DNA of 64,000 bases from Alphaproteobacteria bacterium (GTDB taxonomy: Bacteria; Pseudomonadota; Alphaproteobacteria; UBA6615): positions 192,212 to 256,211 of the forward strand of contig JBFWVF010000005.1 of assembly GCA_050246875.1 (NCBI GenBank), read 5' to 3'. The translations under genes and the position numbers were made by a program. Below are positions 2,399-64,000 of the stretch, in pieces. The stretch's first letter is position 1. Each line of letters starts with the position of its first letter. Below the pieces are notes generated by a model, which saw only the letters and a program-made list of their open reading frames with translations, had not been told where the DNA came from and searched no databases.

Positions 2399-3843
<1,445 letters not shown>

Positions 3844-3847
<4 letters not shown>

Positions 3848-5220: not shown

Positions 5221-5222
5221 CC

Positions 5223-6137: not shown

Positions 6138-6265
6138 ACAATATGCTGGTATTTCAGCCGGCAGTCCCTATCCTAGAACCAACAAGAACGAAGAGGGCCG
6201 GGAGTTGACGTCGCTTCGCGCGGGGGCGCGCGTCTGGTCGACAACAAAAGCAACAGAGGTCGATT

Positions 6266-6520
6266 ATGGCCGACAAGTCACAAAACGTGCAGGATGTGTT
6301 CCTTAACAACATCCGCAAGAACAAGACCCCGGTGACGATCTTCCTGGTCAACGGCGTAAAGCTTCAAGGCGTGGTGACGTGGTTCGACAATTTCTGCGTT
6401 CTGCTGCGCCGCGATGCCCACTCGCAGCTCGTCTACAAGCACGCCATTTCGACGGTGATGCCGTCGGTCCCGGTGCAGCTGTTCGAGCCCGAGACCGCCG
6501 ACGCCGAGGCTGCCGCCTGA
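6266..6520 (+). CDS. hfq: RNA chaperone Hfq
   Basis: [64 protein letters not shown]. Sm1/Sm2 motifs are essentially identical to known Hfq. Lower-GC promoter region upstream. Confidence 0.97.
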
Positions 6521-6521
6521 C

Positions 6522-9859: not shown

Positions 9860-10033
9860 CGTCGAGGCCTCCCGGGCATGCGTTCGTGATCGTTGGCGCG
9901 GATCATAACATCCGGCCGATGGCGGTAAACCGTGGGCAGGGCGCGGTTTGCGCCGTCGCGCCGGCCCTCGCTATCATCCGCCGCCGGCCTCGCCGCGAGG
10001 CCGCCATCACCCGAACAGGCGGAGCGCCGTGAC

Positions 10034-12609: not shown

Positions 12610-12681
12610 GGGACGACTCCCGGACGGGACTGTCCAATCCTAACGATATGGCTCGTCCACGGCGACTGTGCGTCGTCCCCG

Positions 12682-12793
12682 TCCTTCGACAGGCTCAGGA
12701 CGAGGACGATTGGCAACGACGGTGCGGCCGGCTCGGTCCCGTCATGTGCTGGACGGACCGTGCAGGCATCCTCATCCTGAGCCTGTCGAAGGA
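12682..12793. repeat. MITE-like inverted-repeat element, copy B
   Basis: TCCTTCGACAGGCTCAGGACGAGGA …(60 bp)… TCCTCATCCTGAGCCTGTCGAAGGA; arms are reverse complements. Between mazG start and tadG-like end. Confidence 0.8.
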
Positions 12794-12809
12794 TGAGGAT
12801 GCCGGCGCT

Positions 12810-14237: not shown

Positions 14238-14242
14238 GGGGC

Positions 14243-14276
14243 GGAACAAGAAAACCCTTCGCGCGGCGAAGTCAAA
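14243..14276 (-). terminator. Putative rho-independent terminator of nhaP2 (hairpin CTTCGCCGCGCGAAG followed by T-rich GGTTTTCTTGTT on the minus strand)
   Basis: 6-bp GC stem plus U-rich tail immediately downstream of the nhaP2 stop. A second dyad GTTCCGCCccatgtGGCGGAAC encloses the tadG ATG. Confidence 0.45.
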
Positions 14277-14280
14277 ATAA

Positions 14281-20103: not shown

Positions 20104-21308
20104 TGGCGCTCGCCGCGGCCGACCCCGACACCGGGGCGACGCACGTTCTGGCGGCATTCGCGGCGGACGCGGCGATGGAGGCGGTGCTGGCGGAGGCTGC
20201 GGCGACGCGGTTTCCCGGTGCCACGATCGCCAGCGGCGGGGCCGCCGCGGCGGCGCGCTGGCTGGCGCGGGGCCGGGCTATGCCGGCGGTGCTCGTCGTC
20301 GACCTCGGCGACAGCGCCACGCCCTACGACGACCTGATGGCGCTCGCCGACCTCTGCGCGCCGGCGACGCGCGTCGTGGCGCTCGGCGCCGTCAACGACC
20401 TCGCCCTCTATCGCCGCTTCCTCGCCGCCGGCGTCGCCGACTATCTCGTCCGGCCAGTCGCGGCGCCGGACCTCGCGGCGGCTTTGGCGAAAGCGGTCGA
20501 GACCGGAAGCGGCGGCTCGCCGACGACGGCGGCGCGTCCGGCGGGGGGCCGGCTCGTCGCCGTCGTCGGCGTGCGCGGCGGCGTCGGGGCCTCGACGCTG
20601 GCGCTCAACGCGGCGGCGCTGTCGGCGGGCAAACGGGGCCAGCGCACGGCGCTGGTCGACCTCGACCTCGCCTTCGGCACGCTGGCGCTCGGGCTCGACC
20701 TCGAACCGTCGGGTGGCGTCGCCGAGGCGCTGGCGCGCCCGGAACGGATCGATGCGCTGTTCCTCGCCTCGGCCGGCATCCGGCGTGGCGAGCGGCTGCT
20801 GGTGTTCGCCGCCGAGGACGATCTCGCGCGGCCGGGCCGGGTCGGCGCCGAGGCCGCCACGCGGCTGCTCGACGAGGTCCGCGAGGCCAGCGAGCGGGTC
20901 TGGATCGACCTGCCGCGCGGCGAGGCGATTCACGCGTCGGCCCTGCTCGCCGCGCCCGATCGCGTCCTGCTTGTCGCCGACCCGTCGCTCGCCGCCGCCC
21001 GCGACGCGGCGCGGCTGGCGGCGCTGGCAGCCGCCAGCGGGGCGGCGTCCGTGGCGCTCGTCCTCGTCGACACCGGCCGCCGCGGCGCCTTGTCGACGGC
21101 CGAGATCGAGCGCAGCGCAGGGCTGCGCGTGGTCGCCCGCCTGCCGCACGATCGCCATGCCGCCGCCGCCGCCGCCGCCGGGCGCCCGCTGGTCGAGGCG
21201 CAGCCGCGCGGCCCCTATGCACGTGCGCTGGAGGGACTGCTCGACAAGTTCGACCCGGCACCGCGCGTGCGCCGTGGCCTGCGGTTGATCGGCGGGGGCC
21301 GGCGGTGA
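20100..21308 (+). CDS. cpaE: Pilus assembly protein CpaE/TadZ (receiver-like N-domain + MinD/ParA-type ATPase)
   Basis: Deviant Walker A VVGVRGGVGASTLALN, 402 aa, TGATGG overlap with cpaD. Confidence 0.85.
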   Translation: MMALAAADPDTGATHVLAAFAADAAMEAVLAEAAATRFPGATIASGGAAAAARWLARGRAMPAVLVVDLGDSATPYDDLMALADLCAPATRVVALGAVNDLALYRRFLAAGVADYLVRPVAAPDLAAALAKAVETGSGGSPTTAARPAGGRLVAVVGVRGGVGASTLALNAAALSAGKRGQRTALVDLDLAFGTLALGLDLEPSGGVAEALARPERIDALFLASAGIRRGERLLVFAAEDDLARPGRVGAEAATRLLDEVREASERVWIDLPRGEAIHASALLAAPDRVLLVADPSLAAARDAARLAALAAASGAASVALVLVDTGRRGALSTAEIERSAGLRVVARLPHDRHAAAAAAAGRPLVEAQPRGPYARALEGLLDKFDPAPRVRRGLRLIGGGRR

Positions 21309-22924
21309 GCTTCGGCCGCCGGCAACCCGGCGCGGCACCGCCGGAGGAGCCGGCCGCGTCCGTCGTCACCATCGGGCCTTGGCGCGACGATGCCATCCGC
21401 CCGGAGGTGCAGGGCGAGGCGACCGAAGTACTGACCGCGACGGCGCTCGAAGCCGTGCGCGAGGCGGCCGGCGACGCGATTCCGGCCGGCACCGCGCTGC
21501 AGCTCGGCCGCGCCGAGGTGGCGCGCCGGGTCGAGGCGGTGGCCGTCGAATGCCTCGGCGACGCCTTCTTCCGCCTGCATCCGCTGGAGCGCCAGAAGCT
21601 GGTGGCGCTGGTGGCAACCGAGCGGCTGGTGGCGCCGGCCGCCGAGGGCGAGGGGAAGGCCGCGCCGAGCGGTCTCGACGTCGCCCGCGCCAGGGTGCAG
21701 CCGGTGCTGGTCGAGCGCATCGACGCCACGGCGGCGCTGCAGGTGCCGCGCGAGGCCCTGCAGCGCGAGGTCGCCGGCATCGTCGACGAGATCCTTGCCG
21801 AGCAGGGCCTGCGCCTCAACGCCGCCGAGCGGCGCGCCCTCGTCGCCACCATGCTCGACGAGATGCTCGGCTTCGGCCCGCTCGAACCGTTGCTTGCCGA
21901 CGACAGCGTTACCGACATCCTCGTCAACGGCGCCGGCAAGGTCTGGGTCGAACGGGCCGGCAAGCTCGAACTCACCCCGGTGCGCTTCCGCGACGACCGC
22001 CATGTGATGAACATCGCCCAGCGCATCGTCAGCGGCGTCGGCCGCCGCATCGACGAGACGACGCCGCTGGCCGACGCCCGCCTGCCGGACGGCTCGCGGG
22101 TCAACATCGTCATCCCCCCGCTGGCCATCGACGGCCCCTCGATCTCCATCCGCAAGTTCGCCAAGCGGAAGATCACGCTGGAGGTCATGGAGCGGCAGGC
22201 CAACCTGTCGGCCGCGATGGGCGCCGTGCTGCGGATCGCCGCGCGGGCCCGCCTCAACATCCTGATTTCCGGCGGCACCGGCTCGGGCAAGACGACGCTG
22301 CTCAACGCCCTGTCGCGGCTGATCGACGCCGGCGAGCGCATCGTCACCATCGAGGATGCCGCCGAGCTGCAGCTGCAGCAGCCGCATGTTGTCCGGCTCG
22401 AAACCCGGCCGGCCAACCTTGAAGGGCAGAACGCCATCGGCATGCGCGAGCTGGTGAAGAACGCGCTTCGCATGCGTCCCGACCGCATCATTCTGGGCGA
22501 GGTGCGCGGCAGCGAGGCCGTCGACATGCTGCAGGCGATGAACACGGGCCACGAAGGCTCGATGTGCACCGTCCACGCCAACCGCCCGCGCGAGGCGCTG
22601 ACGCGGTTGGAGAACATGGTCGGCCTCGCCGGCATCAACCTGCCGGCACGCGCCGTCCGCACACAGATCGCCGCCGCCGTCGACCTCGTCGTGCAGGTCT
22701 CGCGCATGCGCGACGGCGTGCGCCGCATCACCCACATCGTCGAGGTCGTCGGCATGGAGGGCGAGGTGGTGACGACGCAGGACCTGTTCGTCTGGGAGCA
22801 CGAGGGCGAGGACAGCGCCGGCCGGCTCACCGGACGCTGGACGGCGACCGGCGTGCGCCCGCACTTCACGCCGAAGGCGGCCTATTTCGGCCTTGAGCGC
22901 GCGCTGCAGGAGGCGATGCGATGA
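21305..22924 (+). CDS. cpaF: Tad secretion ATPase CpaF/TadA (type II/IV secretion NTPase)
   Basis: Walker A ILISGGTGSGKTTLLNAL, Asp/His boxes, 539 aa. GTG start overlapping cpaE stop. Confidence 0.9.
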   Translation: MSFGRRQPGAAPPEEPAASVVTIGPWRDDAIRPEVQGEATEVLTATALEAVREAAGDAIPAGTALQLGRAEVARRVEAVAVECLGDAFFRLHPLERQKLVALVATERLVAPAAEGEGKAAPSGLDVARARVQPVLVERIDATAALQVPREALQREVAGIVDEILAEQGLRLNAAERRALVATMLDEMLGFGPLEPLLADDSVTDILVNGAGKVWVERAGKLELTPVRFRDDRHVMNIAQRIVSGVGRRIDETTPLADARLPDGSRVNIVIPPLAIDGPSISIRKFAKRKITLEVMERQANLSAAMGAVLRIAARARLNILISGGTGSGKTTLLNALSRLIDAGERIVTIEDAAELQLQQPHVVRLETRPANLEGQNAIGMRELVKNALRMRPDRIILGEVRGSEAVDMLQAMNTGHEGSMCTVHANRPREALTRLENMVGLAGINLPARAVRTQIAAAVDLVVQVSRMRDGVRRITHIVEVVGMEGEVVTTQDLFVWEHEGEDSAGRLTGRWTATGVRPHFTPKAAYFGLERALQEAMR

Positions 22925-44305: not shown

Positions 44306-45088
<783 letters not shown>

Positions 45089-46926: not shown

Positions 46927-46932
46927 GACCGG

Positions 46933-47336: not shown

Positions 47337-47458
47337 CGGCGGGCAACGCCGGATCCCGGACCGGCGTAGTTCCCGGCAGCATCGCGGCTCAGCCAAGATG
47401 GCCGCAGCGCCGGACCGCGCGGGCCGCTAGACTTGCACCGGTGGCGCGGGGATCCGGG

Positions 47459-50836: not shown

Positions 50837-50848
50837 ATGGGCGGCGAC

Positions 50849-50938
50849 GGATGGGTGGCCGAGCGGTTTAAGGCACCGGTCTTGAAAACCGGCGGAGGTT
50901 CACGCCTCCCGTGGGTTCGAATCCCACCCCATCCGCCA
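50849..50938 (+). tRNA. tRNA-Ser (anticodon UGA)
   Basis: Acceptor stem GGATGGG/CCCATCC, D-arm GCCGAGCGGTTTAAGGC, anticodon loop CTTGAAA (UGA), long variable arm CGGAGGTTCACGCCTCCC, TΨC GGTTCGAATCC, discriminator G + CCA. Confidence 0.85.
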
Positions 50939-51035
50939 ATTGCATGTTCGGACGGATTTTGAGGCGTTCAGGCCCGTCCGCTGAATCGCAGGCGATCTGC
51001 GGCTCTCGCGAAGAACACTGTTCGCGCGCGTTCAA

Positions 51036-52379
51036 TTGCATCCAGCCAGATTAACCGATGGAACATGGGTCGAAGCATGGGCAGTCGACTTGGGCGGAAG
51101 GTTTTTCGTGGCCCGGACGAAGCACAGATTGCGGCCATTGCAGGTCAAGGCGCTGACCAAGCCCGGCCTCTACGCGGACGGCGGCGGGCTCTACCTCCGT
51201 GTTGCTCCGGGCGGCACGCGAGGTTGGATTTTCCGATGGGCGCGTGACGGCCGGACGCGCGATATGGGCCTTGGCTCGGTTGACGCGGTGTCGCTTGCAA
51301 AGGCCCGGGAGAAGGCGGACGCCTATCGAGCTCAGGCTGCCGACGGGATCGACCCGATCGAGGCGCGCAAGGGTGCACGCCTGGCGGCTGCCGTCGTCGC
51401 CGCGAGGACGAGCACGTTCGAGGAAGCTGCGCGATCCTGCGTGAAGGCACGTTCGGCGGGCTGGCGCGACCCGAAGCACGAGAAGCAGTGGGTCACCACG
51501 CTCGAGACATACGCCTTTCCGCACTTCGCATCGGTGCCGGTCGATCAGGTCGACGTCGCGATGGTGATGAAGGCGCTCGAGCCGATCTGGACGGAGAAGC
51601 CGGAGACGGCGAGCCGTGTCCGGGGTCGCATCGAGACGGTGCTCGACTGGGCGGCGGCGCGAGGCTACCGGAGCGGCGACAATCCGGCCCGGTGGCGCGG
51701 CCATCTGCAGAGCCTGTTGCCGCCGGCGAAAAAGGTGCGCCGAGTATAGCACCACGCCGCCCTGCCCTACGGTGAGGTTGGCAACTTCGTCGCCCAGGTC
51801 CGCAAGCAGGAAGGAGTGGCCGCGGCCGCGCTCGAATTCACCATCCTCACCGCCGCCCGTACCGGCGAGGTCATCGGCGCCCGCTGGCCGGAGATCGACC
51901 AGGCGAACAACGTCTGGACCATCCCGCCCGCGCGGACCAAGGCGGGCCGCGAGCATCGGATCCCGCTCTCCCGCCAAGCGCTCGCGGTACTGCACCGCAT
52001 GGCGCCGCTTCGACGTGACGATGGTTACGTCTTCCCTGGCCGCGACAAGGGCCGGCCACTCTCGAACATGGCGATGCTCGTGCTGCTCGAGCGCATGAAA
52101 CGGAACGATCTGACCGTGCATGGCTTCCGCTCGACGTTCCGGGACTGGACTGCCGAGCGCACGAACTTCCCGCAGCACGTCGCTGAGATGGCGCTGGGAC
52201 ACTCCATCCCCGATGCCGTTGAGGCTGCCTATCGCCGCGGCGAGCTGCTCCAGAAGCGACAGCAGCTTGCCCAGGGGTGGGGAGATTTCTGCGATCGCGC
52301 GCCGGCTGCCACCGTCGGCGACGTCGTGCCGATGAGCGAAGGCCAGCGACGGCGCCCAGAGGCGCAGGCGGCCGGCTAG
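51036..52379 (+). pseudogene. int: P4-type tyrosine integrase interrupted by an in-frame TAG (51747..51749)
   Basis: N-terminal Arm/DUF4102 (…LTKPGLYADGGGLYLRV…WIFRW…) and SAM-like domain; after the TAG the same frame continues HHAALPYGEVGNFVAQ… into the catalytic domain (R…HGFRSTFRDW…AYRRGE). The two ORF-track ORFs 51036..51749 and 51816..52379 are in the same frame. Confidence 0.8.
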
Positions 52380-52574
52380 ACCATCGGCGGGGATAGGCTC
52401 GCTACCGACAAGGCCGGAGACCGCGCCGGCCTTCCCCGTCGACCACTTCGCGGACGCCTGCGGAGGCGTTGGACATGAGCGTTAAGCCGGATGTCGCGCT
52501 GCTGGCCCGGCGATAGTTAGCCCTCGAACGCAGTATTTTTCCAACAGCCATAAAGTCGCCCAGCGCTTGGGCGG

Positions 52575-53276
52575 CTAGTCATCCGGCACCAGCAAGCGGT
52601 AGCCAACCCCGGGCTCATTGCCGATGAACCGCGGGGCGGCGGGATCGTCGCCCAGCTTCTGCCTCAGGTGGCCGATGTAGACACGCAGGTAGTGGGTCTC
52701 TGTTTCGTGCGCCGGGCCCCATACCTCCCGCAACATGTGCCGATGGGTGACGATGCGGCCAGCATGCTGGGCGAGGAGGCGTAGCACGTCGAACTCCTTG
52801 CGCGACAGCTTCACGTCGTGGCCGGCAACAGTGACGCGGCGACGCGCCAGATCGATGCGCAGGTCGCCCGCATCTATTTGCGACGGCGGACTCGGAACGT
52901 CCGGGCGTCGCGTGCGCAGCGCCGCGCGAGCCCGTGCCAGCAGTTCGGCGATGCCGAACGGCTTTGTAATGTAGTCGTTGGCACCGCGGTCGAGCGCCGC
53001 CACCTTCTCGGCTTCACCCGCGCGTACGGACAGCACGACAATTGGCACATCCGACCATTCGCGGATTTGGGATATGACCTCCTGTCCGTCGATGTCCGGC
53101 AGGCCGAGGTCGAGGACGACAAGGTCCGGCCGCTCGGTCGCGCATTTCGCGATGGCATCCTGGCCGCGAACTGCTTCGACGATGTCGTAGCCGTGCGCGG
53201 CGAGACTGATGCGCAGAAACTTCCGGATCTGCGGTTCATCGTCCACGATCAGGATGCGCGATTTCCGTTCGCTCAC
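52575..53276 (-). CDS. kdpE: Response regulator KdpE (OmpR family)
   Basis: RILIVDDEPQIRKFL receiver + winged-helix (…YLRVYIGHLRQKLGDD…). Start uncertain (GTG 53276 or ATG 53306/53303); overlaps the kdpD 3' end. Confidence 0.85.
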   Translation of the reverse strand: MSERKSRILIVDDEPQIRKFLRISLAAHGYDIVEAVRGQDAIAKCATERPDLVVLDLGLPDIDGQEVISQIREWSDVPIVVLSVRAGEAEKVAALDRGANDYITKPFGIAELLARARAALRTRRPDVPSPPSQIDAGDLRIDLARRRVTVAGHDVKLSRKEFDVLRLLAQHAGRIVTHRHMLREVWGPAHETETHYLRVYIGHLRQKLGDDPAAPRFIGNEPGVGYRLLVPDD

Positions 53277-55995
53277 CGTCGACCCTCTCCACCGCCTGAG
53301 CATCATCCCGGATCGTCGGCAATGGCTCCAGCGGCAACGTGAATTCGATCGTCGTGCCCTGATCGCCCGGCCCGACTCCCGCGACGATGGTACCGCCGTG
53401 CGCCTCGATCAGGCCACGGCAGATCGACAGGCCGAGGCCGGTACCTGCGGCCTGCCTGTCGCCGGCATGGACCCGATAGAACACGTCAAACACGGCCTCC
53501 CGAGATTCCGGAGGGATACCGCGCCCCTCGTCGGATACCCGGGTGACGAGGCTATCGCCCACTCGACGGGACGCGACAACAATCCGGCTTCCAGGCGGCG
53601 AATACTTAGCCGCGTTGTCGAGCAGATTGACCAGCACCTGCTCGATTAGCACCGGATCCACTTTCACCACCGGCAGATCGAAGGGAATGTCGATGTCGAC
53701 CCGGTGTCGCCGCAACAGCTTCTCCAGCCGCCGGGCGGCCCGACCGGCGATTTCGCGCAGGTCGGCCCATTCCTTGTTGGGCTGGAGCGCGCCATACCCC
53801 AGCCGCGTCATGTCGAGGAGGTTCTGGACGAAGCGGTTGAGGCGTTCGCCCTCGCCAAGGATGGTCTGCAGGAGCTCGTCACGGTCGGCATCGGATAACT
53901 TGTCTGAGTGGCTAGCGAGGCTGGTCGCCGAGCCGATGATCGCGACCAGGGGCGTACGCAAGTCGTGCGAGACAGACGACAGCAGGGCCGAACGTAGCCG
54001 TTCGGTCTCGGTGAGGATGCGCGCCTCCTCGATGTCGGTGGCGAGACGCGTACGCTCGATCGCGACTGCGACCTGGTCGACGAGAGCGTCTATGAGGCGG
54101 CGTTGCTCGGGGTCCAGGCTGGCCTGCCGCGACCGGTCTGCGAACGAGATGGCGAGCAAGCCGACGGGCCCGCGCTGGGTCTTGAGCGGAAGGAACTGCC
54201 AGTCGGCCGTCGGCAGCGTGTCCGAGCCCCAGCCGGTGACGAGGCCGTGCTGCCACGCCCATTCGGCGGCGCCTCGATCCTTCGAGGACAACGTGTCTTC
54301 CGGAGGAAACCCGGCGGCGATGTCGAGACTTTCTCCATCCTTCTGCATCAGCACCAACGCGTGGCATTGCAGCGTCGAGGCGACGTGATGAACGGCCGCC
54401 CACAGTACGTCGTCGAGCGACGCGGCGGCGACGATGCGGCGACTGAAGTCGAACAGGTTCGAGGTGCGGCGGGCCGCCGTCCGCATGGCCTCGACCTGTG
54501 CCTTGAGGCGCGCGGCGAGATTGCCGACGAGCACTGCGACGATGAGGAAGAACAGGATCGTCGACAGCTCGCCTTCATGCAGGACGTTGAATGTGTAGTA
54601 AGGCTCTGTGAATAGGAAGTTGTAGGTAAGGAAGCTGATCAGGCTGGCGTAGAGGGATGGCCACAGGCCGAACCGGATGGCGACGACCAGCACCCCCACC
54701 ACGAAGACGAGCGAGACGTTGGGCAGCGGCAGGTACGACCAGACGCCGAAGGCGGCGACGGACGCGGCGGCGATGATCGCCGTCGCCAGCCCGTAGGCCT
54801 TGGCATCGAGGCGCAGCGAGGGCTTGCCTGGCTCGATCCACTGGCCCGGCCCGTCCTCGGCCGCCGGCGCGACGATAGTGACCTCGAAGGAATCCGCCTT
54901 GCGCAGCAAGCGTTCCGCCACGTTCTCGCGGAAGAAAGCCGCCAGCCGGCGCTTGCGTGGCCGGCCAATGACCAGCCGCGTCACGTTGCGCGCCCGGGCG
55001 AAGCGCAGCAGCTCGTCCGCCATATCGGACTCGGCGTGCAGCGTGGTCGTCTCGGCGCCGAGGCTTTCGGCGAACCGCAATGCCTCGGCGATGCGGTCCT
55101 TCGCGTCGTTGGGCAGGCTCTCGTGGCCAGGCGTCTGCACGTAGGTCACGATCCACGGGATGCGCGCGCGGTCGGCCATCCGCCGAGCCGCCCGCACCAG
55201 CTGCTTCGAGACAGGCGATTCGTTGATGCAGACGAGAAGGCGATCCTGTGTCGGCCATGGCCCGGCAATGGCATGGGCGCGCATGAAGTTGATCATCTGC
55301 GCGTCGACCCGCTCGGCGGCGACGCGCATCGCCAGCTCGCGAAAGGCGGTGAGGTTGCCCTTGGAGAAGAAGTGCCGGATCGCACGCCCGATCTGATGGG
55401 CGACATAGACTTTGCCTTCGCGGAGCCGCTGGATGAGGTCGTCCGGCGGCAGGTCGATCAGCTCGATCTCGTCGGCGAGCTCCAGCACCTTGTCGGGAAC
55501 AGTCTCGCGCACCCTGACGCGTGAAATGCGGGCCACCACGTCGTTCAGGCTGTCGAGATGCTGGATGTTGAGCGTGGTATAAACGTCAATGCCGGCGGCC
55601 AGCAGCTCCTCGACATCCTGCCAGCGCTTGGCGTGGCGGGTGCCGGGCACATTGCTGTGGGCGAACTCGTCGACGATGGCGAGCTTCGGCCGTCGCTGCA
55701 GAACGGCGTCGATATCCATCTCGCCGAATACCCGGCCACGATAGAGGTGGCGCTTGCGCGGCAGGATGTCGAGGCCGTGCAGCAGCCGCTCGGTCTCGAC
55801 GCGACCATGCGTTTCTACGACGGCGACGACGACATCGATGCCCTCGCGCCGACGCTCCTGCGCGGCCTCGAGCATGGAATACGTCTTGCCCACGCCCGGA
55901 TAGGCGCCGAGGAAGACCTTCAGGCGGCCGCGACCTTCCTTCTTCGCCTCTTCGAGAAGAACGTCGGGTGCCGGCCGCTCCTGGTCGTCAGACAT
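53236..55995 (-). CDS. kdpD: Sensor histidine kinase KdpD
   Basis: 919 aa. N-terminal KdpD domain with P-loop (GAYPGVGKTYSML), Usp domain, 4 TM, GAF, HisKA (SHDLRTPL), HATPase. Confidence 0.92.
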   Translation of the reverse strand: MSDDQERPAPDVLLEEAKKEGRGRLKVFLGAYPGVGKTYSMLEAAQERRREGIDVVVAVVETHGRVETERLLHGLDILPRKRHLYRGRVFGEMDIDAVLQRRPKLAIVDEFAHSNVPGTRHAKRWQDVEELLAAGIDVYTTLNIQHLDSLNDVVARISRVRVRETVPDKVLELADEIELIDLPPDDLIQRLREGKVYVAHQIGRAIRHFFSKGNLTAFRELAMRVAAERVDAQMINFMRAHAIAGPWPTQDRLLVCINESPVSKQLVRAARRMADRARIPWIVTYVQTPGHESLPNDAKDRIAEALRFAESLGAETTTLHAESDMADELLRFARARNVTRLVIGRPRKRRLAAFFRENVAERLLRKADSFEVTIVAPAAEDGPGQWIEPGKPSLRLDAKAYGLATAIIAAASVAAFGVWSYLPLPNVSLVFVVGVLVVAIRFGLWPSLYASLISFLTYNFLFTEPYYTFNVLHEGELSTILFFLIVAVLVGNLAARLKAQVEAMRTAARRTSNLFDFSRRIVAAASLDDVLWAAVHHVASTLQCHALVLMQKDGESLDIAAGFPPEDTLSSKDRGAAEWAWQHGLVTGWGSDTLPTADWQFLPLKTQRGPVGLLAISFADRSRQASLDPEQRRLIDALVDQVAVAIERTRLATDIEEARILTETERLRSALLSSVSHDLRTPLVAIIGSATSLASHSDKLSDADRDELLQTILGEGERLNRFVQNLLDMTRLGYGALQPNKEWADLREIAGRAARRLEKLLRRHRVDIDIPFDLPVVKVDPVLIEQVLVNLLDNAAKYSPPGSRIVVASRRVGDSLVTRVSDEGRGIPPESREAVFDVFYRVHAGDRQAAGTGLGLSICRGLIEAHGGTIVAGVGPGDQGTTIEFTLPLEPLPTIRDDAQAVERVDGERTEIAHPDRGR

Positions 55996-56088
55996 TCCGT
56001 CCTGCCGTTGGCCGGCACGGCCCGCGAATCTCCGGCCGCACCGAAAGTGTACTCCCTCGGCCGATCGCCAGGCGCGCCGCGCGTGGCA

Positions 56089-56652
56089 TCACCGGCCGCG
56101 CCTGTCGAGTGCAAGGTTGAGCTCCAGAACGCTGACGATCCGCTCCGGCGTCACGATGCCGCCGGGCGAGAAGGCGTGCTGGTCGACCAGCCGCTCGACC
56201 TCGCCGACGGGCAACCCGCGGGCGTCGGCGACGCGCCGGGCCTGGTACAACGCCGCAGGCGCGGTGATGTGAGGATCGAGCCCGCCGCCGGATGCCGCCG
56301 CCAGATCGGCAGGCAGCGGCCGTTCCGGCGTGGCTTCGTAGCGGGCAACAAGCTCGCGTCCGCGCGCTGTCAGGTCGGCGCTCGTCGGCGACTTGTTGCT
56401 GCCGGCCGCGGCGGTCGCATCGTAGCCGGTCTTGCCGGCCGCCGAGGGGCGCGGCCAGAAGTAGCGCGGCTCGGTGAAGTTCTGGCCGACCAGGCGGCTG
56501 CCGACAATCCGCCCGTCGGCAGTCCTGATTAGCGAGCCGGCCGCCGTATCGGGAAAGAGCTGGGCAATGCCCAGGATCACTGACGCGTAGCCGGCGACAC
56601 AGATCAGCATGGTCGCGACGACGAGCCGGGCGCTGGCAATGAACATCGACAT
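56089..56652 (-). CDS. kdpC: K+-transporting ATPase subunit C
   Basis: N-terminal TM, …SLIRTADGRIVGSRLVGQNFTEPRYFWPRPSAAG…, …GGLDPHITAPAALYQ…, ELNLALD C-terminus = KdpC. Confidence 0.9.
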   Translation of the reverse strand: MSMFIASARLVVATMLICVAGYASVILGIAQLFPDTAAGSLIRTADGRIVGSRLVGQNFTEPRYFWPRPSAAGKTGYDATAAAGSNKSPTSADLTARGRELVARYEATPERPLPADLAAASGGGLDPHITAPAALYQARRVADARGLPVGEVERLVDQHAFSPGGIVTPERIVSVLELNLALDRRGR

Positions 56653-56671
56653 GGTTACACTCCTGCCTGCG

Positions 56672-58348
56672 CTAGTTCATGAAGGTGAAGTGCTCGGCGA
56701 GCGGTCCCAGTGCCGCCGCCGGAAAGAACGTCAGCGCACCGAACACGAGGATGGTGGCGATCAGCATGAGGGCGAATGTCGCGTCCTCGACGCCGAGCGT
56801 ACCGGCCGTCGTCGCCGCCCGCCGCTTTGTACCGAGCGAGCCCGCGATGGCCAGCGGCAGGATGATCGGAATGAAGCGCGCCAGCAGCATGACGATGCCG
56901 GTTGCCACGTTCCACGGCACCGTGTTGTCGCCCAGCCCTTCGAAGCCGGACCCGTTGTTGGCGCTGGCGGAGCTGAATTCGTAGAGCATCTCGCTGAAGC
57001 CGTGCGCGCCGACATTGTTGAGCGTTCCGGTGCCCCACGATGTCGCAGCGAAGAGTGCCGTGCCGCCGAGGATGAAGGCGGCATGGGCAACCAGCGCGAG
57101 AACGGCGAGCTTCACCTCGCCGGCCTCGACGCGCCGCCCCAGATACTCCGGGGTGCGGCCTACCATCATGCCGGCGAGGAACACGGCGACGATGATGTAC
57201 AGGAACATGTTGATCATGCCGACACCGACACCGCCGAACGTGGCGTTGAGCCACATGCCTATCATCGGCATCAATCCGGTCATCGGATTCAGGCTATCAT
57301 GCATGGCGCCGACCGAGCCGTTGCTGGTAGACGTCGTCAGCACGGCCCACAGCGGACCTGAGGCCGAGCCAAAGCGCAGCTCCTTGCCTTCGAGGTTGCC
57401 AACGCCCTGCTCGATGGGAAGCGCGGCAAAGGCCTCTGTCGGCGCAGATTCGAAATACACCGCGCCGCCGATCTTGGCGAGCAGCAGCACCAGCATGACG
57501 CCGAAGACCACGGCAGCATGGCGCGGGCGCCCGACGATCCGGCCGAACAGCCATACCGACGCCATCGGGATGAGGATGATCGCCACCATCGACAGCCCGT
57601 TGGTCCAGAAGGTCGGGTTCTCGAGCGGGTGCGTGCTGTTGGGACCGAAGAAGCCGCCGCCGTTGGTGCCGAGCTGCTTGATCGTCAAGAAGGCCGCCAC
57701 CGGACCGCGGGCGATGGTCTGCATCGCACCTTCCAGCGTCGTCACCACTGCCGCGCCGTCGAAGGTCATCGGCATGCCGCCGGCGACCATCAGCGTGGCG
57801 ACGACGAGGGCCAGCGGCAGCAGCACCAGGAAAGAGGCCCGCTGCAGGTCGACGAAGAAATTGCCGAGCGGTCGCCCGGCAAGGCCGCGGGCGAGTGCCG
57901 TCAACGCCGCGATGCCGGTCGCCGCCGAGACGAACTGCAGCCACATCAGGCCGCCGAGCTGCGAGAAATAGCTGAGCGTGCTTTCGCCCGAATAGTGCTG
58001 CAGGTTGGTGTTGGACGTGAAGGACGCCGCAGTGTTGAACGCGAGGCTGCCTTCGATCGGGCCCATGCCATCCGGATTGAGCGGCAGGTACTGCTGCAGG
58101 GCAAGGATGGCGTAGGTCACCGTGAACATCACGGCGTTGAATGCCAGCATCGCGAACACGTATGGCTTCCAGCCTTGCGACGCGCGGGTCAGCGGGCCGC
58201 CGACGGCCTGAAAGACGCGGGTCCAGCCGTCGGGCCCGGTCGCCGGCTGGTCGGGGTCCATGGCCCGCTTCATGTAACGGCCAAGCGGCCACGAAAGCAG
58301 CGCGGTGCCGCCTACAATAACGGCGACGAGAAGTACGGCGTTCAGCAT
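56672..58348 (-). CDS. kdpA: K+-transporting ATPase subunit A (channel-like subunit)
   Basis: KdpA hallmarks NTNLQHYSGESTLSYFSQ, GTNGGGFF, GNLEGKE, GRTPEYLG; 558 aa from MLNAVLLVAV. Confidence 0.92.
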   Translation of the reverse strand: MLNAVLLVAVIVGGTALLSWPLGRYMKRAMDPDQPATGPDGWTRVFQAVGGPLTRASQGWKPYVFAMLAFNAVMFTVTYAILALQQYLPLNPDGMGPIEGSLAFNTAASFTSNTNLQHYSGESTLSYFSQLGGLMWLQFVSAATGIAALTALARGLAGRPLGNFFVDLQRASFLVLLPLALVVATLMVAGGMPMTFDGAAVVTTLEGAMQTIARGPVAAFLTIKQLGTNGGGFFGPNSTHPLENPTFWTNGLSMVAIILIPMASVWLFGRIVGRPRHAAVVFGVMLVLLLAKIGGAVYFESAPTEAFAALPIEQGVGNLEGKELRFGSASGPLWAVLTTSTSNGSVGAMHDSLNPMTGLMPMIGMWLNATFGGVGVGMINMFLYIIVAVFLAGMMVGRTPEYLGRRVEAGEVKLAVLALVAHAAFILGGTALFAATSWGTGTLNNVGAHGFSEMLYEFSSASANNGSGFEGLGDNTVPWNVATGIVMLLARFIPIILPLAIAGSLGTKRRAATTAGTLGVEDATFALMLIATILVFGALTFFPAAALGPLAEHFTFMN

Positions 58349-58374
58349 AGGACGATCTCCAGCACGGCCGGCGT

Positions 58375-58455
58375 TCAGGTCCGGTCGACCGTCTCGGCAA
58401 GCACGAACAGCGCGCCGAAGACGGCGAGTCCGAGGAGCAGGTAGAGCCACAGCAT
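58375..58455 (-). CDS. Small hydrophobic peptide (26 aa) between kdpB and kdpA, possible second KdpF-like subunit
   Basis: ATG with RBS AAGGA 9 nt upstream. MLWLYLLLGLAVFGALFVLAETVDRT*. Single TM. Stop 24 nt before the kdpA ATG. Not in the ORF track (too short); read directly. Confidence 0.35.
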   Translation of the reverse strand: MLWLYLLLGLAVFGALFVLAETVDRT

Positions 58456-58473
58456 GGCGAGGATCCTTCTGGT

Positions 58474-60501
58474 CTAGACGAGTCCCAGCGACGCGATGAG
58501 CATGTCGATGAGCTTGATGCCGGCGAATGGCACGACGAGGCCGCCGACACCGTAGACCAGCAGGTTGCGCTGCAGCAGGGCGGCGGCACTCGATGGCGTG
58601 AAGCGGACGCCGCGCAGCGCCAGCGGGATGAGGGCGACGATGATCAGCGCGTTGAAGATGACCGCCGACAGGATCGCGCTCTCCGGGCTGGCGAGGTGCA
58701 TGATGTCGAGGGCGTCGAGCGATGGATAGGCGGCGACGAACATCGCCGGCAGGATGGCGAAGTACTTGGCCACGTCGTTTGCGATGGAGAACGTCGTCAG
58801 CGCGCCGCGGCTGATGAGCAGTTGCTTGCCGATCTGCACCACCTCCATCAGCTTGGTCGGGTCGCTGTCGAGGTCGACGATATTGGCGGCCTCCCGCGCA
58901 GCCTGGGTGCCGTCGTTCATGGCGACGCCGATGTCAGCCTGGGCCAGCGCAGGGGCGTCGTTGGTGCCGTCGCCGCACATCGCCACCATGCGTCCCTCCG
59001 CCTGCTCGCGGCGGATCCACTCGAGCTTCTTCTCCGGAGTGGCTTCGGCAAGGAAGTCGTCGACACCGGCCTCGGCCGCGATGGCGGCAGCGGTCAGCGC
59101 ATTGTCGCCCGTGATCATCACCGTGCGGATACCCATGCGGCGAAGCTGGGCGAAACGGTCGGCGATGCCGGGCTTGACGATGTCCTTGAGATGGACGACG
59201 CCGAGCACCCGGCGATCTCGGGCGACGAGGATCGGCGTGCCGCCGGAGCGTGCGATGTCCTCGACCGTGCGCTTGAGACCCATCGTCTCGGCCAGGTCGG
59301 CGTAGGTCAGTATGGCGTCCTCGGCACCCTTGCGGACCTCGCCATCGGCCAGGTCGGCGCCGCTCATGCGGATCTCGGCGCTGAAGGGGATGAATTTTCG
59401 TACCTGCGAGGCGTCGGGCGTCACGCCGTACTTGCGCTTCGCCAGCTCGACGATGGAGCGCCCTTCCGGCGTCTCGTCGCTGAGCGAGGCCAGCGCCGCA
59501 GCCTCGGCCAGTTCCTGCATGCCGACGCCACGCGACGGAATGAACTCGTCGGCCATGCGGTTGCCGAAGGTGATGGTGCCGGTCTTGTCGATGAGCAGCG
59601 TGTCGACGTTGCCGGCGGCCTCCACCGCGCGCCCCGACTTGGCGATGACGTTGGCCTGGACCAGTCGGTCCATGCCGGCGATGCCGATGGCCGACAACAG
59701 GCCGCCGATGGTCGTCGGGATCAGGGTGACGAGGAGTGCGATGAGGAAGACAACCGGAATTGCCGCGCCGGAATAGATGGCAAAAGGCTCCAGCGTGACC
59801 ACGACGATGAGGAAGATCAGGGTCATGCCGACCAGCAGGATGCTTAGCGCGACCTCGTTCGGCGTCTTCTGCCGTTGCGCGCCCTCCACCATGGCGATCA
59901 TGCGGTCGAGGAAGCTCTCCCCCGGCTTTGCCGTGACGCGCACCTTGAGCCAGTCCGATACCACCCGCGTCCCGCCGGTGACGGCCGAGCGGTCGCCCCC
60001 GCTCTCGCGGATGACCGGCGCCGACTCACCAGTGATCGCCGCCTCGTCAACCGAGGCAATACCCTCGATGACCTCGCCGTCGGCCGGGATCAACTCGCCG
60101 GCTTCGACCAGCACGACATCGCCGCTGCGCAGCTCGCTGCTGCGCACCGTTTCGTGACCGTCGCCGGCGGGCGCGCCGAGGCGCCTGGCCATCGTCTCCC
60201 GGTGCGTCTCGCGCAGACTGTCGGCGCGCGCCTTGCCTCGGCCTTCGGCGACAGCCTCGGCGAAGTTGGCGAACAGCACCGTGAACCACAGCCAGGCGGC
60301 GATCTGGCCGATGATGCCGGCATCGGCAGCGCCGAACAGATCGCGCAGGAATGCCAGCGTCGCCAGCACTGCGACGACCTCGACGACGAACATCACCGGA
60401 TTGCGGACTAGCGTGCGCGGATCAAGCTTGCGCACGGAAACCGATAGCGCCTGCAGCACCAGTGCACGGTCGAGCAGGACTATGCTTCGGGACTTGAGCA
60501 T
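58474..60501 (-). CDS. kdpB: K+-transporting P-type ATPase subunit B
   Basis: [11 protein letters not shown] phosphorylation motif, [15 protein letters not shown]; 675 aa from [11 protein letters not shown]. Confidence 0.92.
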
Positions 60502-60591
60502 TGTTCGATCTCCACGCGGAACAGGTGGCGGCGATTGCGGCGCTGCACCCGGCGGGTCTGGTATTGCGCGCCGGCGGTCGCGCACGGGTCG

Positions 60592-60681
60592 CTAGAACTG
60601 CTCCGGCCGGAGCAGCGCATAAAGCAGGTAGCCAAGCAGCAGCAGCGCAACTCCGCCGCCGATCAGGAATTCGAGTGTCAT
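60592..60681 (-). CDS. kdpF: K+-transporting ATPase subunit F
   Basis: 29-aa MTLEFLIGGGVALLLLGYLLYALLRPEQF* matches the KdpF consensus (…LLGYLxYALxxPExF). Not in the ORF track; read directly. Confidence 0.7.
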   Translation of the reverse strand: MTLEFLIGGGVALLLLGYLLYALLRPEQF

Positions 60682-60967
60682 GGCCTTACCTCACCTCCGC
60701 GCTCCGCCACGCCGCACCGAGTAACCACCCCGATCGACAAGGGCGGTGCCGACTTGGCGAAGTTGCTTCCCTTGCTGCGTGCAAACATTCGATATGAAGA
60801 AGACTTTGCCTCGAAAAGTGCGGCGCGAGCTGACATGGATCAATCGCGGAGAAATCTATAGGCTGTTTTGTGAAGTTCCTCCCAAGCGGCACAAGGAACA
60901 TGTTGCCAAATCCCATAAAAGTGCCATGCCTGTTGCTTGCGACTGCCGTAAAGAATGCATCAATTCT

Positions 60968-61996
60968 TTATGCAATTTTTATACGGTCCGGCGCCCAAGC
61001 GGCTTCTCGCCCGTCTGGACAAGATGGCGGCCTGCCGCCGCGATCGTCAGCCCAAGGCCGCGATTGTGCGGCGGGCTCGCAGGACGGCTGTCGGAGCAGC
61101 CCCATGCGGACCAGCACCTCGGCGACCTCGATCCGAGTCGCCGCCGCAGGTTCACACAATGGCAACCGCATTTCGGGGCGCATCCGCCCGAGCAGACTCA
61201 GCGCGAACTTCACGGGGATCGGATTGGCTTCGGTCGCGAGCGCACGCACCAAGGGCACCAGCGACGCCCCTATGGTACGCGCCTCGCCATAGTAGTCGCC
61301 GCGGCGACAGGCCGCGTCCAGCTTCGCGCATTCGCCGGGCACGACGTTGGCGAGAACGGAAATGCAGCCGTTGCCGCCTTTCATCATGAAGTCGAGGGCG
61401 GTCGCATCGTCGCCGCTGAACAGACGGAACGCCTCGCCGAGTTGACGGCGCAGATGCAACGCACGCTCCGGCCGTCCGGTTGCGTCCTTGAAGCCGACGA
61501 TCCGAGGTAACTGGGCGAGGCGCTGGAGTGTATCGGCCGTCAGTGTGACGCCGGTTCGCGCCGGCACGTCGTAGAGCAGGATGGGTATCGAAGTCGCCGC
61601 GTGGACAGCCTCGAAATGGCGGAAGATGCCCTCCTGCGGCGGCCGATTGTAGTAGGGCGTCACCACGAGCAGGCCATCAGCACCGGCCCGTTCGGCCCGT
61701 CGCGCGAGTTCGACGGCGTGCGCGGTCTCACTGGATCCGGCGCCGGCGATGACCGGCACGCGTCCATTGACCGCTTTGACCGCGAGCACGATGGTGCGCG
61801 ACTGCTCGACCGCGCTCAGTGTCGGCGCTTCGCCGGTGGTGCCGTTGACGACCAGCGCGGCGATGCCGCTGTCGACCTGCCACCGGCAGAATTCGACGAA
61901 GGCGGGCTCGTCGATGTGGCCCTGGGCGAATGGCGTCGGCGCCGCGCTGACATGGCCAGTCAACGTGTCGATGGGGAGGCGTTGTCGGTCGGTCAT
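60968..61996 (-). CDS. Dihydrodipicolinate synthase (DapA/NAL) family lyase with ~45-aa C-terminal extension
   Basis: …ALVVNGTTGEAPTLS…, …GVTPYYNRP…, Schiff-base Lys region (GFKDATG); TIM-barrel class I aldolase. Confidence 0.75.
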   Translation of the reverse strand: MTDRQRLPIDTLTGHVSAAPTPFAQGHIDEPAFVEFCRWQVDSGIAALVVNGTTGEAPTLSAVEQSRTIVLAVKAVNGRVPVIAGAGSSETAHAVELARRAERAGADGLLVVTPYYNRPPQEGIFRHFEAVHAATSIPILLYDVPARTGVTLTADTLQRLAQLPRIVGFKDATGRPERALHLRRQLGEAFRLFSGDDATALDFMMKGGNGCISVLANVVPGECAKLDAACRRGDYYGEARTIGASLVPLVRALATEANPIPVKFALSLLGRMRPEMRLPLCEPAAATRIEVAEVLVRMGLLRQPSCEPAAQSRPWADDRGGRPPSCPDGREAAWAPDRIKIA

Positions 61997-62004
61997 GGTC
62001 AGCC

Positions 62005-62469
62005 TCACGCGGCATGCGCGAGGGCGGGCCGCTTTCGCGCGAAGCACAGGCCGCTGCCGTCCGACAGCCGCTGCGTCATCCATGTCAGGCCGAAACCGTA
62101 TTCGGCCAGCAGCCGACGCAACCGGCATAGCCGCCCGGAGGACAGATGGCCGGCGAGGCGCAGTACAACCCGGCTGCCGGCACGCATCGTCCGACCAAGC
62201 GATCCGAGGGCACGGCGCAGATCGGGCTCGCGGCGGGGATCGACGATGATCAGCAGGTCGGCCGGCGCCGCCGGGTCATGGGGTCCGCCCTGCGGGGCCC
62301 GGCACGCGGCACGAGCGACGCCGCGGCGGCACAGTGCCGCCAGCAGGTCGATCTGGCCGGTGCCGACGATGGTGACCGCCTGACCGGGCGTCGTCGCGCA
62401 GGCGTCGACCAGTTCTTCGCAGACGCCGGCCCGGCAATGCTCAGGCGAACGGGGTGATGTCGGGCGCAT
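62005..62469 (-). CDS. Hypothetical protein
   Basis: 154 aa from the internal ATG; …QAVTIVGTGQIDLLAALCRRG…LLIIVDP… weak Rossmann-like segment, no confident family. Confidence 0.35.
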   Translation of the reverse strand: MRPTSPRSPEHCRAGVCEELVDACATTPGQAVTIVGTGQIDLLAALCRRGVARAACRAPQGGPHDPAAPADLLIIVDPRREPDLRRALGSLGRTMRAGSRVVLRLAGHLSSGRLCRLRRLLAEYGFGLTWMTQRLSDGSGLCFARKRPALAHAA

Positions 62470-62719
62470 GACTTCCTCCTGGCCCTGGCCGGGCCGGTTG
62501 TTTTCGTCGGAAGACAAGCTGGTGCGTGCCGCCATCAAGGTGCCATGACGGTTGCGCGGCAAGGGCGACAAATCCGAGCAAAACTTTTACGCGCCCTTGA
62601 CACGGGCGCGAACTCCGGCTGTGCAGGTTCTTATGCCGAAGCAGAGATGCGCGCCGACGAGCTACTCGATAAGAGTGACACGGGTAGCCAGCGGGTTTAG
62701 CGGCGCATCAGGATTCCGG

Positions 62720-63043
62720 CTAAGTGCGCAACCGGTGCAAGATTCTGTAACCATTTTCTTGCGTGGCGTACGCCGCTCGCCCGCCGGTGTCGGAAGCGTC
62801 ACTTCCATCGATGAAGCCAGCATCCAATGCCAGCCAGCCGTGGTAGGCGATCTGTTCGCGGCTATAGCTTTCGATCTCGATCTCCGCGGTAAATGCAGGC
62901 TCGTCCCCTTGGGCCTCGACGTAGAGCAGAATTTCTCGGAGTAGGCCGAGGTCGCGCTTCATTGCCGCCGCCCACAGCATCCGCGTCGCACAATCCTGCC
63001 AAATCTGCACCGATTGCGCGAACATGGGCGGAAACATGGGCAT
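62720..63043 (-). CDS. DUF2513-like hypothetical protein
   Basis: …MKRDLGLLREILLYVEAQGDEPAFTAEIEIESYSREQIAYHGWLALDAGFIDGSD… resembles DUF2513 (MKRD…IR.ILL..E). Lower-GC coding region; start uncertain (63043 or 62962). Confidence 0.4.
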   Translation of the reverse strand: MPMFPPMFAQSVQIWQDCATRMLWAAAMKRDLGLLREILLYVEAQGDEPAFTAEIEIESYSREQIAYHGWLALDAGFIDGSDASDTGGRAAYATQENGYRILHRLRT

Positions 63044-63092
63044 GCCAGAACGATCATGCCTAAGCCTTTGATCAAACGAAAAGTCTGGCAGA

Positions 63093-63106
63093 CACCCCAT
63101 CCGCCA
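63093..63106. repeat. 14-bp direct repeat CACCCCATCCGCCA identical to the tRNA-Ser 3' end (candidate attR of the island)
   Basis: Exact 14-mer (next base differs, then TTG) also present at 50925..50938 inside the tRNA-Ser. About 12.2 kb downstream, on the integrase side. Confidence 0.6.
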
Positions 63107-63141
63107 TTTGGCAGCGATGGCAGTGTCGTGCGGGGAATCCC

Positions 63142-63690
63142 CTACCCGCCGCCCTGCGCCAGCGGCTTCGCGTTCCATGTCGCGGTGAAGCGCATGGCGG
63201 CGAAGTGGAAGCCGATGAAGCTGCCGACCTCCATGATCTCGGCGTCGCTCCAGTGCCGGCGCATGCCGTCGTAGAAGGCGCGGTCGACCTTCTCGGCGTC
63301 GAGGAAGAGCTGGTCGCCGTAGCGCATGAACCACTTCTCGGCGTCGGTGAAGAGGGCTGAGTCGTCGTAATCGCCGAGCGCCGCCTGCACCTCCTCCTCG
63401 GTCATGCCCTCGGCGATCGCCTTCTTCGAGCGCAGGCCGGAGAAGTAGCTGTCGCCGCAGAACTGCGCGAGCTGCAGGCGGATCAGCTCCTTCAGGCGAT
63501 GGGGGACGTTACCCTCGTAGTGCGATTGCAGGATCATCCGCATCGTCGGCACGGCCATGGTGTTGGCGCGCGCGATGATGCGGACGAACAGGGAGTCGGG
63601 CACGCCCAGCTCCTCGTCGCAGCGCCGCGCGATCTCGCGCAGCTCCGGGTCCTCGATGTCGTCGAGCGCCAGCGGCCGGATGTTCGACAT
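63142..63690 (-). CDS. Carboxymuconolactone decarboxylase (AhpD-like) family protein
   Basis: 182 aa, CMD-family core (…EEVQAALGDYDDSALFTDAEKWFMRY…). Confidence 0.7.
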   Translation of the reverse strand: MSNIRPLALDDIEDPELREIARRCDEELGVPDSLFVRIIARANTMAVPTMRMILQSHYEGNVPHRLKELIRLQLAQFCGDSYFSGLRSKKAIAEGMTEEEVQAALGDYDDSALFTDAEKWFMRYGDQLFLDAEKVDRAFYDGMRRHWSDAEIMEVGSFIGFHFAAMRFTATWNAKPLAQGGG

Positions 63691-64000
63691 CACTCGGCCG
63701 CCTCCGCCTTGCGCAGCGAGGTCGGCGCCGCGCCATAGAGACGCGCCGACTCCTCCTGGCTCACCAGCCGCCCGTCGGGCGCGAACATCGGGTAGAACTT
63801 GAGCGACCCGAAGAAGGTATGGAAGCCGAGGTTGTAGAACATGAACACGCCGAGCTCGGTGATCTCGTCCTCGCTCAGCACCGCGCGCATCTCGTCGTAG
63901 AACGCCGCGTCGACCGAGTGCGGGTCGGAACCCATCGCCTCGGAGTAGCGCAGCATCATCTTTTCCTTGGCCGAGAAGTTGGGGCTGTCGGCCCAGTTCT
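63690..64000 (-). CDS. Carboxymuconolactone decarboxylase (AhpD-like) family protein, 5' end beyond window
   Basis: …NFSAKEKMMLRYSEAMGSDPHSVDAAFYDEMRAVLSEDEITELGVFMFYNLG… CMD family motif. The reading frame stays open to the window edge, so the gene is partial. Confidence 0.65.
   Translation of the reverse strand, partial: NWADSPNFSAKEKMMLRYSEAMGSDPHSVDAAFYDEMRAVLSEDEITELGVFMFYNLGFHTFFGSLKFYPMFAPDGRLVSQEESARLYGAAPTSLRKAEAAE

Follow-up and report, generated by a model that had tools for sequence, protein, structure and literature searches.

The 64,000-nucleotide stretch analyzed here (the window), from an alphaproteobacterial contig (JBFWVF010000005.1), very probably carries a genomic island of about 12 kb, at positions 50,939-63,106, that is integrated at the 3' end of a tRNA-Ser(UGA) gene and has a kdp potassium uptake system as its cargo. 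The weight of the case lies in two lines of evidence: the comparison with related genomes and the fit of the attachment (att) sites to the family of integrases to which the integrase of the island belongs. A first-pass annotation had proposed such an element, a tRNA-Ser island of about 12 kb with an attL/attR pair, a non-functional integrase and the whole kdp system, and this description is borne out by the relatives and by the att geometry.

The presumed target of integration, tRNA-Ser(UGA) (50849..50938, plus strand), was identified by ARAGORN and scores 61 bits against the Rfam tRNA model; it is the sole tRNA that ARAGORN finds in the window. In the collections, uncultured Alphaproteobacteria are the closest relatives, and a gene for a PhyR-type regulator lies nearby. 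One contig, L001, is 100% identical to window 53142-64000 and runs 9.7 kb further.

On the left side, a locus from the metagenome-assembled genome Baikal-deep-G54 (L006) is collinear with window 38010-50938 at 81-93% nucleotide identity, and the match stops at the last base of the tRNA. Directly after it, L006 has unrelated low-GC DNA (13536..14450), and the contig ends 915 nt later. L006 was the only orthologous locus in a contig scan with the upstream cyclase/AAA/TPR protein; the other 79 of the 80 loci were paralogues at 36-60% identity, without tRNA-Ser(UGA), and were set aside.

Both flanks are present in L163, a 45-kb JGI contig found via the TcuA-like flank protein (96% identical). Its left match covers window 48223-50938 at 82% nucleotide identity and ends at the 3' end of the tRNA, which is by eye identical in the two; its right match starts at 63139 and runs at 86% across a trio of AhpD-like genes and the EamA, TcuA-like and carboxylase genes. 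Between the flanks, L163 has 4.9 kb with hydantoinase B and A genes, a degenerate tRNA-Ser-like copy and a 74-aa open reading frame (ORF). The right boundary is found again in L169, a 1-kb ENA contig that encodes the only close homologue (89% identical) of the AhpD-like protein in 5.8 billion proteins. Here, 20 nt of the tRNA-Ser 3' end at the contig terminus are followed by a stretch with a ParD-like ORF and then by the AhpD-like gene, and the contig matches the right flank at 88% from 63139/63140 onward.

From the tRNA to the AhpD-like gene, the window thus has 12.2 kb, against 4.9 kb in L163 and 377 bp in L169, and the DNA that is specific to the window relative to these relatives is 50939-63138. 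No homologues of the integrase, the kdp genes, the DHDPS-family gene, the 185-aa hypothetical protein or the DUF2513 protein were found in the fetched parts of L163 (21.5 kb) or L169 (1.1 kb). The boundaries and the insertion relative to the relatives are direct observations. An empty tRNA-Ser site in close relatives had been suggested as the comparison to make, and L169 supplies a nearly empty one, on a contig that ends within the tRNA.

The ends of the island are marked by the 14-mer CACCCCATCCGCCA, which the first-pass annotation had reported to occur exactly once more in the window; this was confirmed. The two copies, both on the plus strand, lie at the 3' end of tRNA-Ser(UGA) (50925..50938) and, in direct orientation, at 63093..63106, and no further copy is present in the 9.7 kb of the source contig beyond the window. 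The 14-mer is atypical in composition for the window, with an expectation of 2e-4 to 8e-4 per 64 kb (Markov order 0-4) and about 1e-6 per 100-bp zone, and its right copy ends 33 bp short of the independently mapped synteny break. Taken alone, the repeat is suggestive and only moderately beyond chance, since 14-mers often recur in this GC-rich window: 1.5% of its positions start one with a second copy on the same strand, and such 14-mers are present in 22% of 45-nt segments. As strong evidence by itself, it was rejected. A 13-mer, GGTGGCCGAGCGG, that belongs to the 5' part of the tRNA also recurs, at window 2138..2150; this is a chance match, and short tRNA-derived repeats are accordingly weak evidence in this genome.

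The right copy is part of a longer structure. The attR core (63086..63106, plus strand) reads TGGCAGA-CACCCCA-TCCGCCA, a 7-7-7 arrangement that is one mismatch from the palindrome TGGCGGA-N7-TCCGCCA found in the integrase family; with at most one mismatch, this palindrome occurs once in the 64-kb window, at attR, against 0.03 occurrences expected. The attL core, CGAATCC-CACCCCA-TCCGCCA, consists of the last 21 nt of the tRNA (50918..50938, plus strand). Homology to L163 and L006 stops at 50938, where attL ends, and homology to the flank in L163 and L169 resumes at 63139/63140, past attR. This geometry is seen directly in the DNA.

The family is very large: at least 8000 proteins, about 410 aa in length, reach E < 1e-60. 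IMG/VR viral contigs were scanned with an alignment of 12 integrase members, which was used in place of a single-sequence scan that gave just three distant matches, and the 42 loci that had 270 nt or more of DNA ahead of the integrase were kept. In 17 of these, a TCCGCCA has its end 133-225 nt before the integrase start; the expected number is 0.02 per locus. The sites fall into two classes. The first consists of tRNA-Ser 3' ends, called by ARAGORN in L187 (Ser-GCU), L222 (Ser-UGA) and L253 (Ser-GGA) and recognised in L212 and L217 by the T-loop and acceptor-end sequence only. The second consists of the palindrome TGGCGGA-N7-TCCGCCA without a tRNA, perfect in L188, L196, L206, L231 and L242 and with one mismatch in L237; these are read as putative attP sites. 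The best homologue of the integrase (L165, 64% identical) adjoins a tRNA-Ser(GGA) that is cut by the contig end, and in L168 the integrase follows by 149 nt a tRNA-SeC ending TGCCTCT-TCCGCCA (region 9757..10001), beside selA and selB. A tRNA is missing upstream of another homologue, L166, which is about 60% identical; linkage to a tRNA is therefore not universal at this level of integrase identity.

In the window, 169 nt separate the end of the tRNA from the likelier integrase start, which fits the 133-225 nt seen in the family. This segment, the island-side P' arm between attL and the integrase start (50939..51107, plus strand), contains TGTTCG at 50945..50950. Repeats of (T)GTTCG are found just past the core at the matching position in L187, L190, L188, L237 and L242, and these motifs may represent arm-type sites.

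Lambda-type tyrosine recombinases act at inverted core sites around a 7-bp overlap. The attR of the island (TGGCAGA-N7-TCCGCCA) and the putative attP of the family (TGGCGGA-N7-TCCGCCA) have the same layout, whereas the left core of attB, CGAATCC, does not resemble TGGCGGA. By this analogy, the 14-bp repeat would consist of the overlap CACCCCA and the right core site TCCGCCA, with the cleavage positions and the extent of the overlap likewise predicted. Fourteen base pairs would then be all that attP and attB need to share, so that the repeat would not be a longer one that has decayed.

The insertion is best pictured as follows. A P4-like tyrosine integrase, encoded at the left end of the island, would have recombined the attP TGGCAGA-CACCCCA-TCCGCCA with the tRNA end CGAATCC-CACCCCA-TCCGCCA, the attP bearing TGGCAGACACCCCATCCGCCA being the partner of the tRNA-Ser end. 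The shared 14 bp would thereby have become the direct repeat at both junctions, and the tRNA-Ser gene would have stayed intact. On this model, the attP junction of the excised element would read AAAAGTCTGGCAGACACCCCATCCGCCAATTGCATGTTCGG and the empty attB junction GGTTCGAATCCCACCCCATCCGCCATTTGGCAGCGATGG. The element itself resembles a stripped phage or satellite backbone, of which attL, the integrase and perhaps an int-alpA-type RNA would be left on the left and DUF2513 and attR on the right, with the intact kdpFBACDE operon, a dapA-like gene and one unknown gene as the cargo between them. The function of the integrase would have been lost after insertion, and the host would keep an inducible potassium pump under the control of KdpD and KdpE. 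The whole 12 kb may have arrived as a single unit.

The integrase is a P4-like tyrosine integrase pseudogene (51108..52379, plus strand), recognised by its Pfam domains (Arm-DNA-bind_3, 1.3e-21; Phage_int_M, 3.7e-32; Phage_integrase, 9.8e-17), its ORF and its alignment with homologues. The first-pass annotation placed it 98 bp past the tRNA, which holds if the ORF starts at TTG 51036 but not for the likelier start at GTG 51108. It had also called the integrase decayed, a term that does not fit what is seen. The two halves are in one frame, split by a single TAG (51747..51749) at codon 214 of the 424-codon frame (stop counted, from GTG 51108), and they align over their whole length with homologues (about 410 aa) that are intact. 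Every invariant column of the family is kept, including the catalytic R251, K278, H338, R341, H365 and Y375. Homologues have E, Q, K or A in the TAG column, and the TAG is one base change from GAG, CAG or AAG. This lesion is plain in the sequence, and the gene is better described as recently inactivated than as decayed. With an in-frame TAG, the island cannot excise by means of its own integrase.

Seven nucleotides past the integrase stop there is a possible int-alpA RNA (RF02996; 52386..52453, plus strand), which matches the full length of the model with a score of 33.6 bits, below the gathering threshold of 35.8. There is no alpA gene downstream of it, and the motif was not found after eight homologous integrases.

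The cargo genes, identified with Pfam, NCBIfam, PHROGs and the depositor's gene calls, are all on the minus strand, and their identities are direct results of these comparisons. From left to right, they start with the response regulator gene kdpE (52575..53276; 233 aa; Response_reg and Trans_reg_C) and the sensor kinase gene kdpD (53236..55995; KdpD, Usp, DUF4118, GAF, HisKA and HATPase_c), followed by kdpC (56089..56652; Pfam KdpC, E = 1.6e-53) and kdpA (56672..58348; 564 bits against the cut-off of 388 of the NCBIfam kdpA equivalog). Upstream of kdpA in the operon is kdpB (58474..60501; NCBIfam kdpB equivalog, 1025 bits against 528), preceded by a called kdpF gene for 29 aa (60592..60681; NCBIfam potass_kdpF, 35.4 bits against 26.85). 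All of the Kdp subunits are full length and above the curated cut-offs, and KdpD and KdpE are adjacent. By homology, the system would provide ATP-driven, high-affinity potassium uptake that is induced by potassium limitation.

Upstream of kdpF lies an intergenic stretch of lower GC content (60682..60967; 53.8%), inside the island, which is presumably the kdp promoter region; a scan of the island, including this stretch, gave no sigma-70 promoter sites. Next comes a dapA-like gene of the DHDPS family (60968..61996; Pfam DHDPS, E = 1e-76; NCBIfam dapA equivalog, 293 against 206 bits) and, 9 nt upstream of it, a called gene for a hypothetical protein of 185 aa (62005..62562) that has no match in Pfam, NCBIfam or PHROGs. 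The last gene before attR encodes a 107-aa DUF2513 protein (62720..63043; Pfam, E = 4e-9; phrog_585, E = 1.3e-7), a member of a phage-associated family. By tblastn, the DUF2513, 185-aa and DHDPS proteins have no match in any of the 250 fetched loci. The gene content that the first-pass annotation had given (an integrase with a stop, kdpFBACDE, a dapA-like gene, a hypothetical protein and a DUF2513 protein) agrees with the Pfam and NCBIfam matches and the gene calls.

This arrangement also allows a different history for the cargo, in which the element that inserted at the tRNA was a small one, with the integrase, DUF2513 and the att sites, and later gained the kdp operon and the dapA-like pair through separate recombination, so that the whole never moved as a unit. 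The parts that resemble a mobile backbone are indeed at the two ends only, and no other locus joins the integrase family to kdp, DHDPS, the 185-aa protein or DUF2513. The chromosomal surroundings of related kdpFBACDE operons are ordinary, and the cargo seen with homologous integrases is of phage or satellite type, as in L165 with its DUF5906 and Nu1-like genes. There are, however, no insertion sequence elements, transposases or internal repeats to mark secondary insertions, and the GC content at third codon positions (GC3) is similar in the integrase (0.79-0.84), the kdp genes (0.79-0.87) and the dapA-like gene (0.76). Such a composite origin is considered unlikely, and it would alter the history of the cargo, not the boundaries of the island or the mechanism of its insertion.

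A comparison of composition with the flank had also been suggested, and it does set the island apart, by a modest shift. Its GC content is 66% against 71.5% upstream, and the GC3 of its genes is 0.82 against 0.90 for flank genes (Mann-Whitney p = 8e-4), on a background of about 71-75% GC. The dips to about 45-50% GC that had been noted are shallower than that: the actual values are 53.6% over 60700-60960 and 59.3% over 62480-63100, and just single 100-bp windows reach 45-52%. Nor are both of them at the island edges, the first being the internal kdpF/dapA intergenic region.

The AhpD/CMD-like trio to the right of the island (window 63142..64000 and L001 9378..10549) is itself 61-68% GC against 72-75% further right, and its AhpD-like protein has the single close homologue mentioned above. 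Both features would suit a larger island, extending to about 64.4 kb so as to take in the trio, in which the 14-mer would be a relic inside the element. This is very improbable and, for the present island, is refuted by synteny: in L163, the trio is collinear with the EamA and TcuA genes, and in L169 it adjoins the tRNA-Ser end where the kdp island is absent. There is also no further copy of the tRNA-Ser end up to 9.7 kb to the right of the window. An older, separate acquisition of the trio is possible. Within the trio, ORFs of 81 and 88 aa together align at 31% identity to the whole of the 182-aa AhpD-like protein and thus are a tandem paralogue split in two; the split is kept in L163.

Least probable of all is an ancestral region. 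In this reading, kdp would have been inherited vertically at the site and lost by deletion from L163 and L169, the integrase would be a remnant of unrelated origin, and the 14-mer would recur by chance. The frequency of recurring 14-mers, the modest difference in composition and the lack of a truly empty site in L163 and L169 would allow it. Against it stand the distance of 33 bp between the repeat and the break in synteny, the heptamer to the left of the repeat, with which the 7-7-7 core specific to the family is complete, the different filling in each of three relatives, beginning in every case exactly at the tRNA 3' end, and the family-typical distance of the integrase from the tRNA.

Several observations weigh against the integrated island as described. 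There is no strictly empty site among the relatives, since L163 has other DNA at this position and the full tRNA is presumed in L169. The 33 bp between attR and the flank show no significant similarity to the sequence that follows the tRNA in L163 (p about 0.06-0.18); homology between the two was dropped as evidence, the score being reached by 119 of 2000 shuffles and by 543 of 3000 random window segments. A second copy of the island was not found in the collections searched, and plasmid matches cover at most 18% of it (megablast), involving the kdp genes only, at 74-78% identity. The closest integrase is only 64% identical, and neither an excisionase nor transfer genes were found in the island, which has no Xis- or AlpA-like ORF. 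The TAG in the integrase could be an assembly error, because no independent assembly spans it (L002 covers 60266-64000 only). The compositional shift is modest, as noted, and the syntenic AhpD-like trio is equally low in GC. Finally, the closest kdp operon (L085; KdpB 87% and KdpA 83% identical) is in an ordinary context, between sulfate-ABC/Rrf2 genes and trkH.

The order of the kdp genes in the island is F-B-A-C-D-E and does not follow the customary F-A-B-C, which is not strictly defining. Horizontal transfer on the island had been offered as the explanation for this odd order. A metagenome scan with KdpA gave 80 loci at 62-83% identity; in 47 of them, kdpB is directly upstream of kdpA, followed by kdpC; a further 18, on contigs that are cut off upstream, have kdpC immediately after kdpA. 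The canonical A-B-C order was found in nine loci, among the more distant ones (KdpA identity at most 69%). In the 23 longest loci, which were checked for this, no tRNA adjoins the kdp operon, and L144 is the only one of the 80 with an integrase near kdp. That integrase (20549..21656), only distantly related (36-37% identity), is encoded about 5.7 kb beyond the kdpE of a kdpBACDE operon; L147, which is otherwise like L144, has no integrase match.

The same order is found outside the metagenomes. Plasmid pBSY17_1 of Sphingobium sp. RAC03 has a kdpF-kdpB-kdpA-kdpC-kdpD-regulator cluster annotated by PGAP, with a KdpA that is 71% identical, and the kdpBAC order has been described for Deinococcus radiodurans (PMC5716572). 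Both resemble the island in their F-B-A-C-D-E order and differ from it in that the kdp operons are not beside a tRNA or an integrase; in D. radiodurans, moreover, kdpD is split. Since this order is common in ordinary chromosomal loci and is also present on the Sphingobium plasmid, horizontal transfer is not its explanation. From the distribution among these loci, the order is a trait of the Kdp clade that is older than its capture by the island.

The island is a standard, ordinary tRNA-integrated island with a P4-like integrase, and kdp as the cargo of an integrated element has precedent. It shares with other tRNA-integrated islands and prophages of this kind an integrase downstream of the tRNA, a tRNA 3' end that is repeated at the far junction, absence from relatives and a deviating composition. 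The nearest example is L222 (IMG/VR UViG_3300048997_000233), in which the same tRNA-Ser(UGA) 3' end, CACCCCATCCGCCA, lies 153 nt upstream of the integrase. The integrase of L222 is, in contrast, only about 50% identical, and the island here differs in having lost phage or satellite genes and excision functions, in the stop within its integrase and in its kdp cargo.

Another comparison is offered by the staphylococcal cassettes of the Firmicutes, which are moved by serine (Ccr) recombinases acting at orfX, whereas the island described here has a tyrosine integrase at a tRNA. Complete kdp operons are cargo of ACME (arginine catabolic mobile element) types IV and V and of the staphylococcal cassette chromosome mec (SCCmec), where, as here, they are part of a recombinase-dependent chromosomal element that is bounded by direct repeats (PMC7029739).

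The interval between tRNA-Ser(UGA) and the AhpD-like gene is a hot spot, with different content in each relative examined. The low-GC stretch of L006 is a third, different occupant of the tRNA-Ser site. In L169, this interval (671..1049) has only the small ParD-like ORF; the end of the contig inside the tRNA is what a branching of the assembly graph at a polymorphic site would produce. In L163, the tRNA-Ser-like copy (6731..6813) is close to full length and 79.5% identical over 83 nt, has CGA at the anticodon position and is not called by ARAGORN. It lies at the right end of the hydantoinase B/A module (2728..7626) and may represent an older, integrase-less island or a dead second tRNA-Ser gene.

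A wider model can be put forward only tentatively. In it, TCCGCCA is the fixed right core site of the integrase clade, the 7-bp overlap of attP sets which isoacceptor is targeted, and the tRNA/AhpD interval is a hot spot with multiple tenants. TCCGCCA would be common to Ser and Sec tRNAs, being made up of acceptor strand, discriminator and CCA, and small changes in attP would retarget the elements among the Ser(UGA), Ser(GGA), Ser(GCU) and Sec tRNAs. Such elements, among them integrase-less relics such as the hydantoinase module of L163 with its degenerate tRNA copy, would deposit metabolic cargo in the interval.

A few further features of the region may be mentioned. The attR palindrome, taken with the adjoining T-rich island DNA, scores as a minus-strand hairpin of terminator-like form, 36 nt past the stop codon of the AhpD-like gene, and the right junction of the island may now terminate the flanking operon. 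Further along L163, between the PEP-mutase-like and carboxylase genes, there is a VapB/PIN toxin-antitoxin pair (12541..13145) that is not present in the window genome. In L164, ARAGORN calls a tRNA-SeC-like sequence (6676..6771) that overlaps the start of the TcuA-like ORF.

The current understanding of genomic islands and of Kdp is unchanged by this island. The B-before-A order of its kdp genes is a clade trait that is already present in public annotations and not a by-product of mobility. The modest addition is a mapped hot spot and an explicit model of the att core, a 7-7-7 structure anchored by TCCGCCA, for a large clade of integrases that target Ser and Sec tRNAs. With its junctions mapped, the island indicates that a complete kdpFBACDE system can travel as the cargo of a phage-type tRNA-Ser island, here in a poorly sampled, high-GC lineage of the Alphaproteobacteria.

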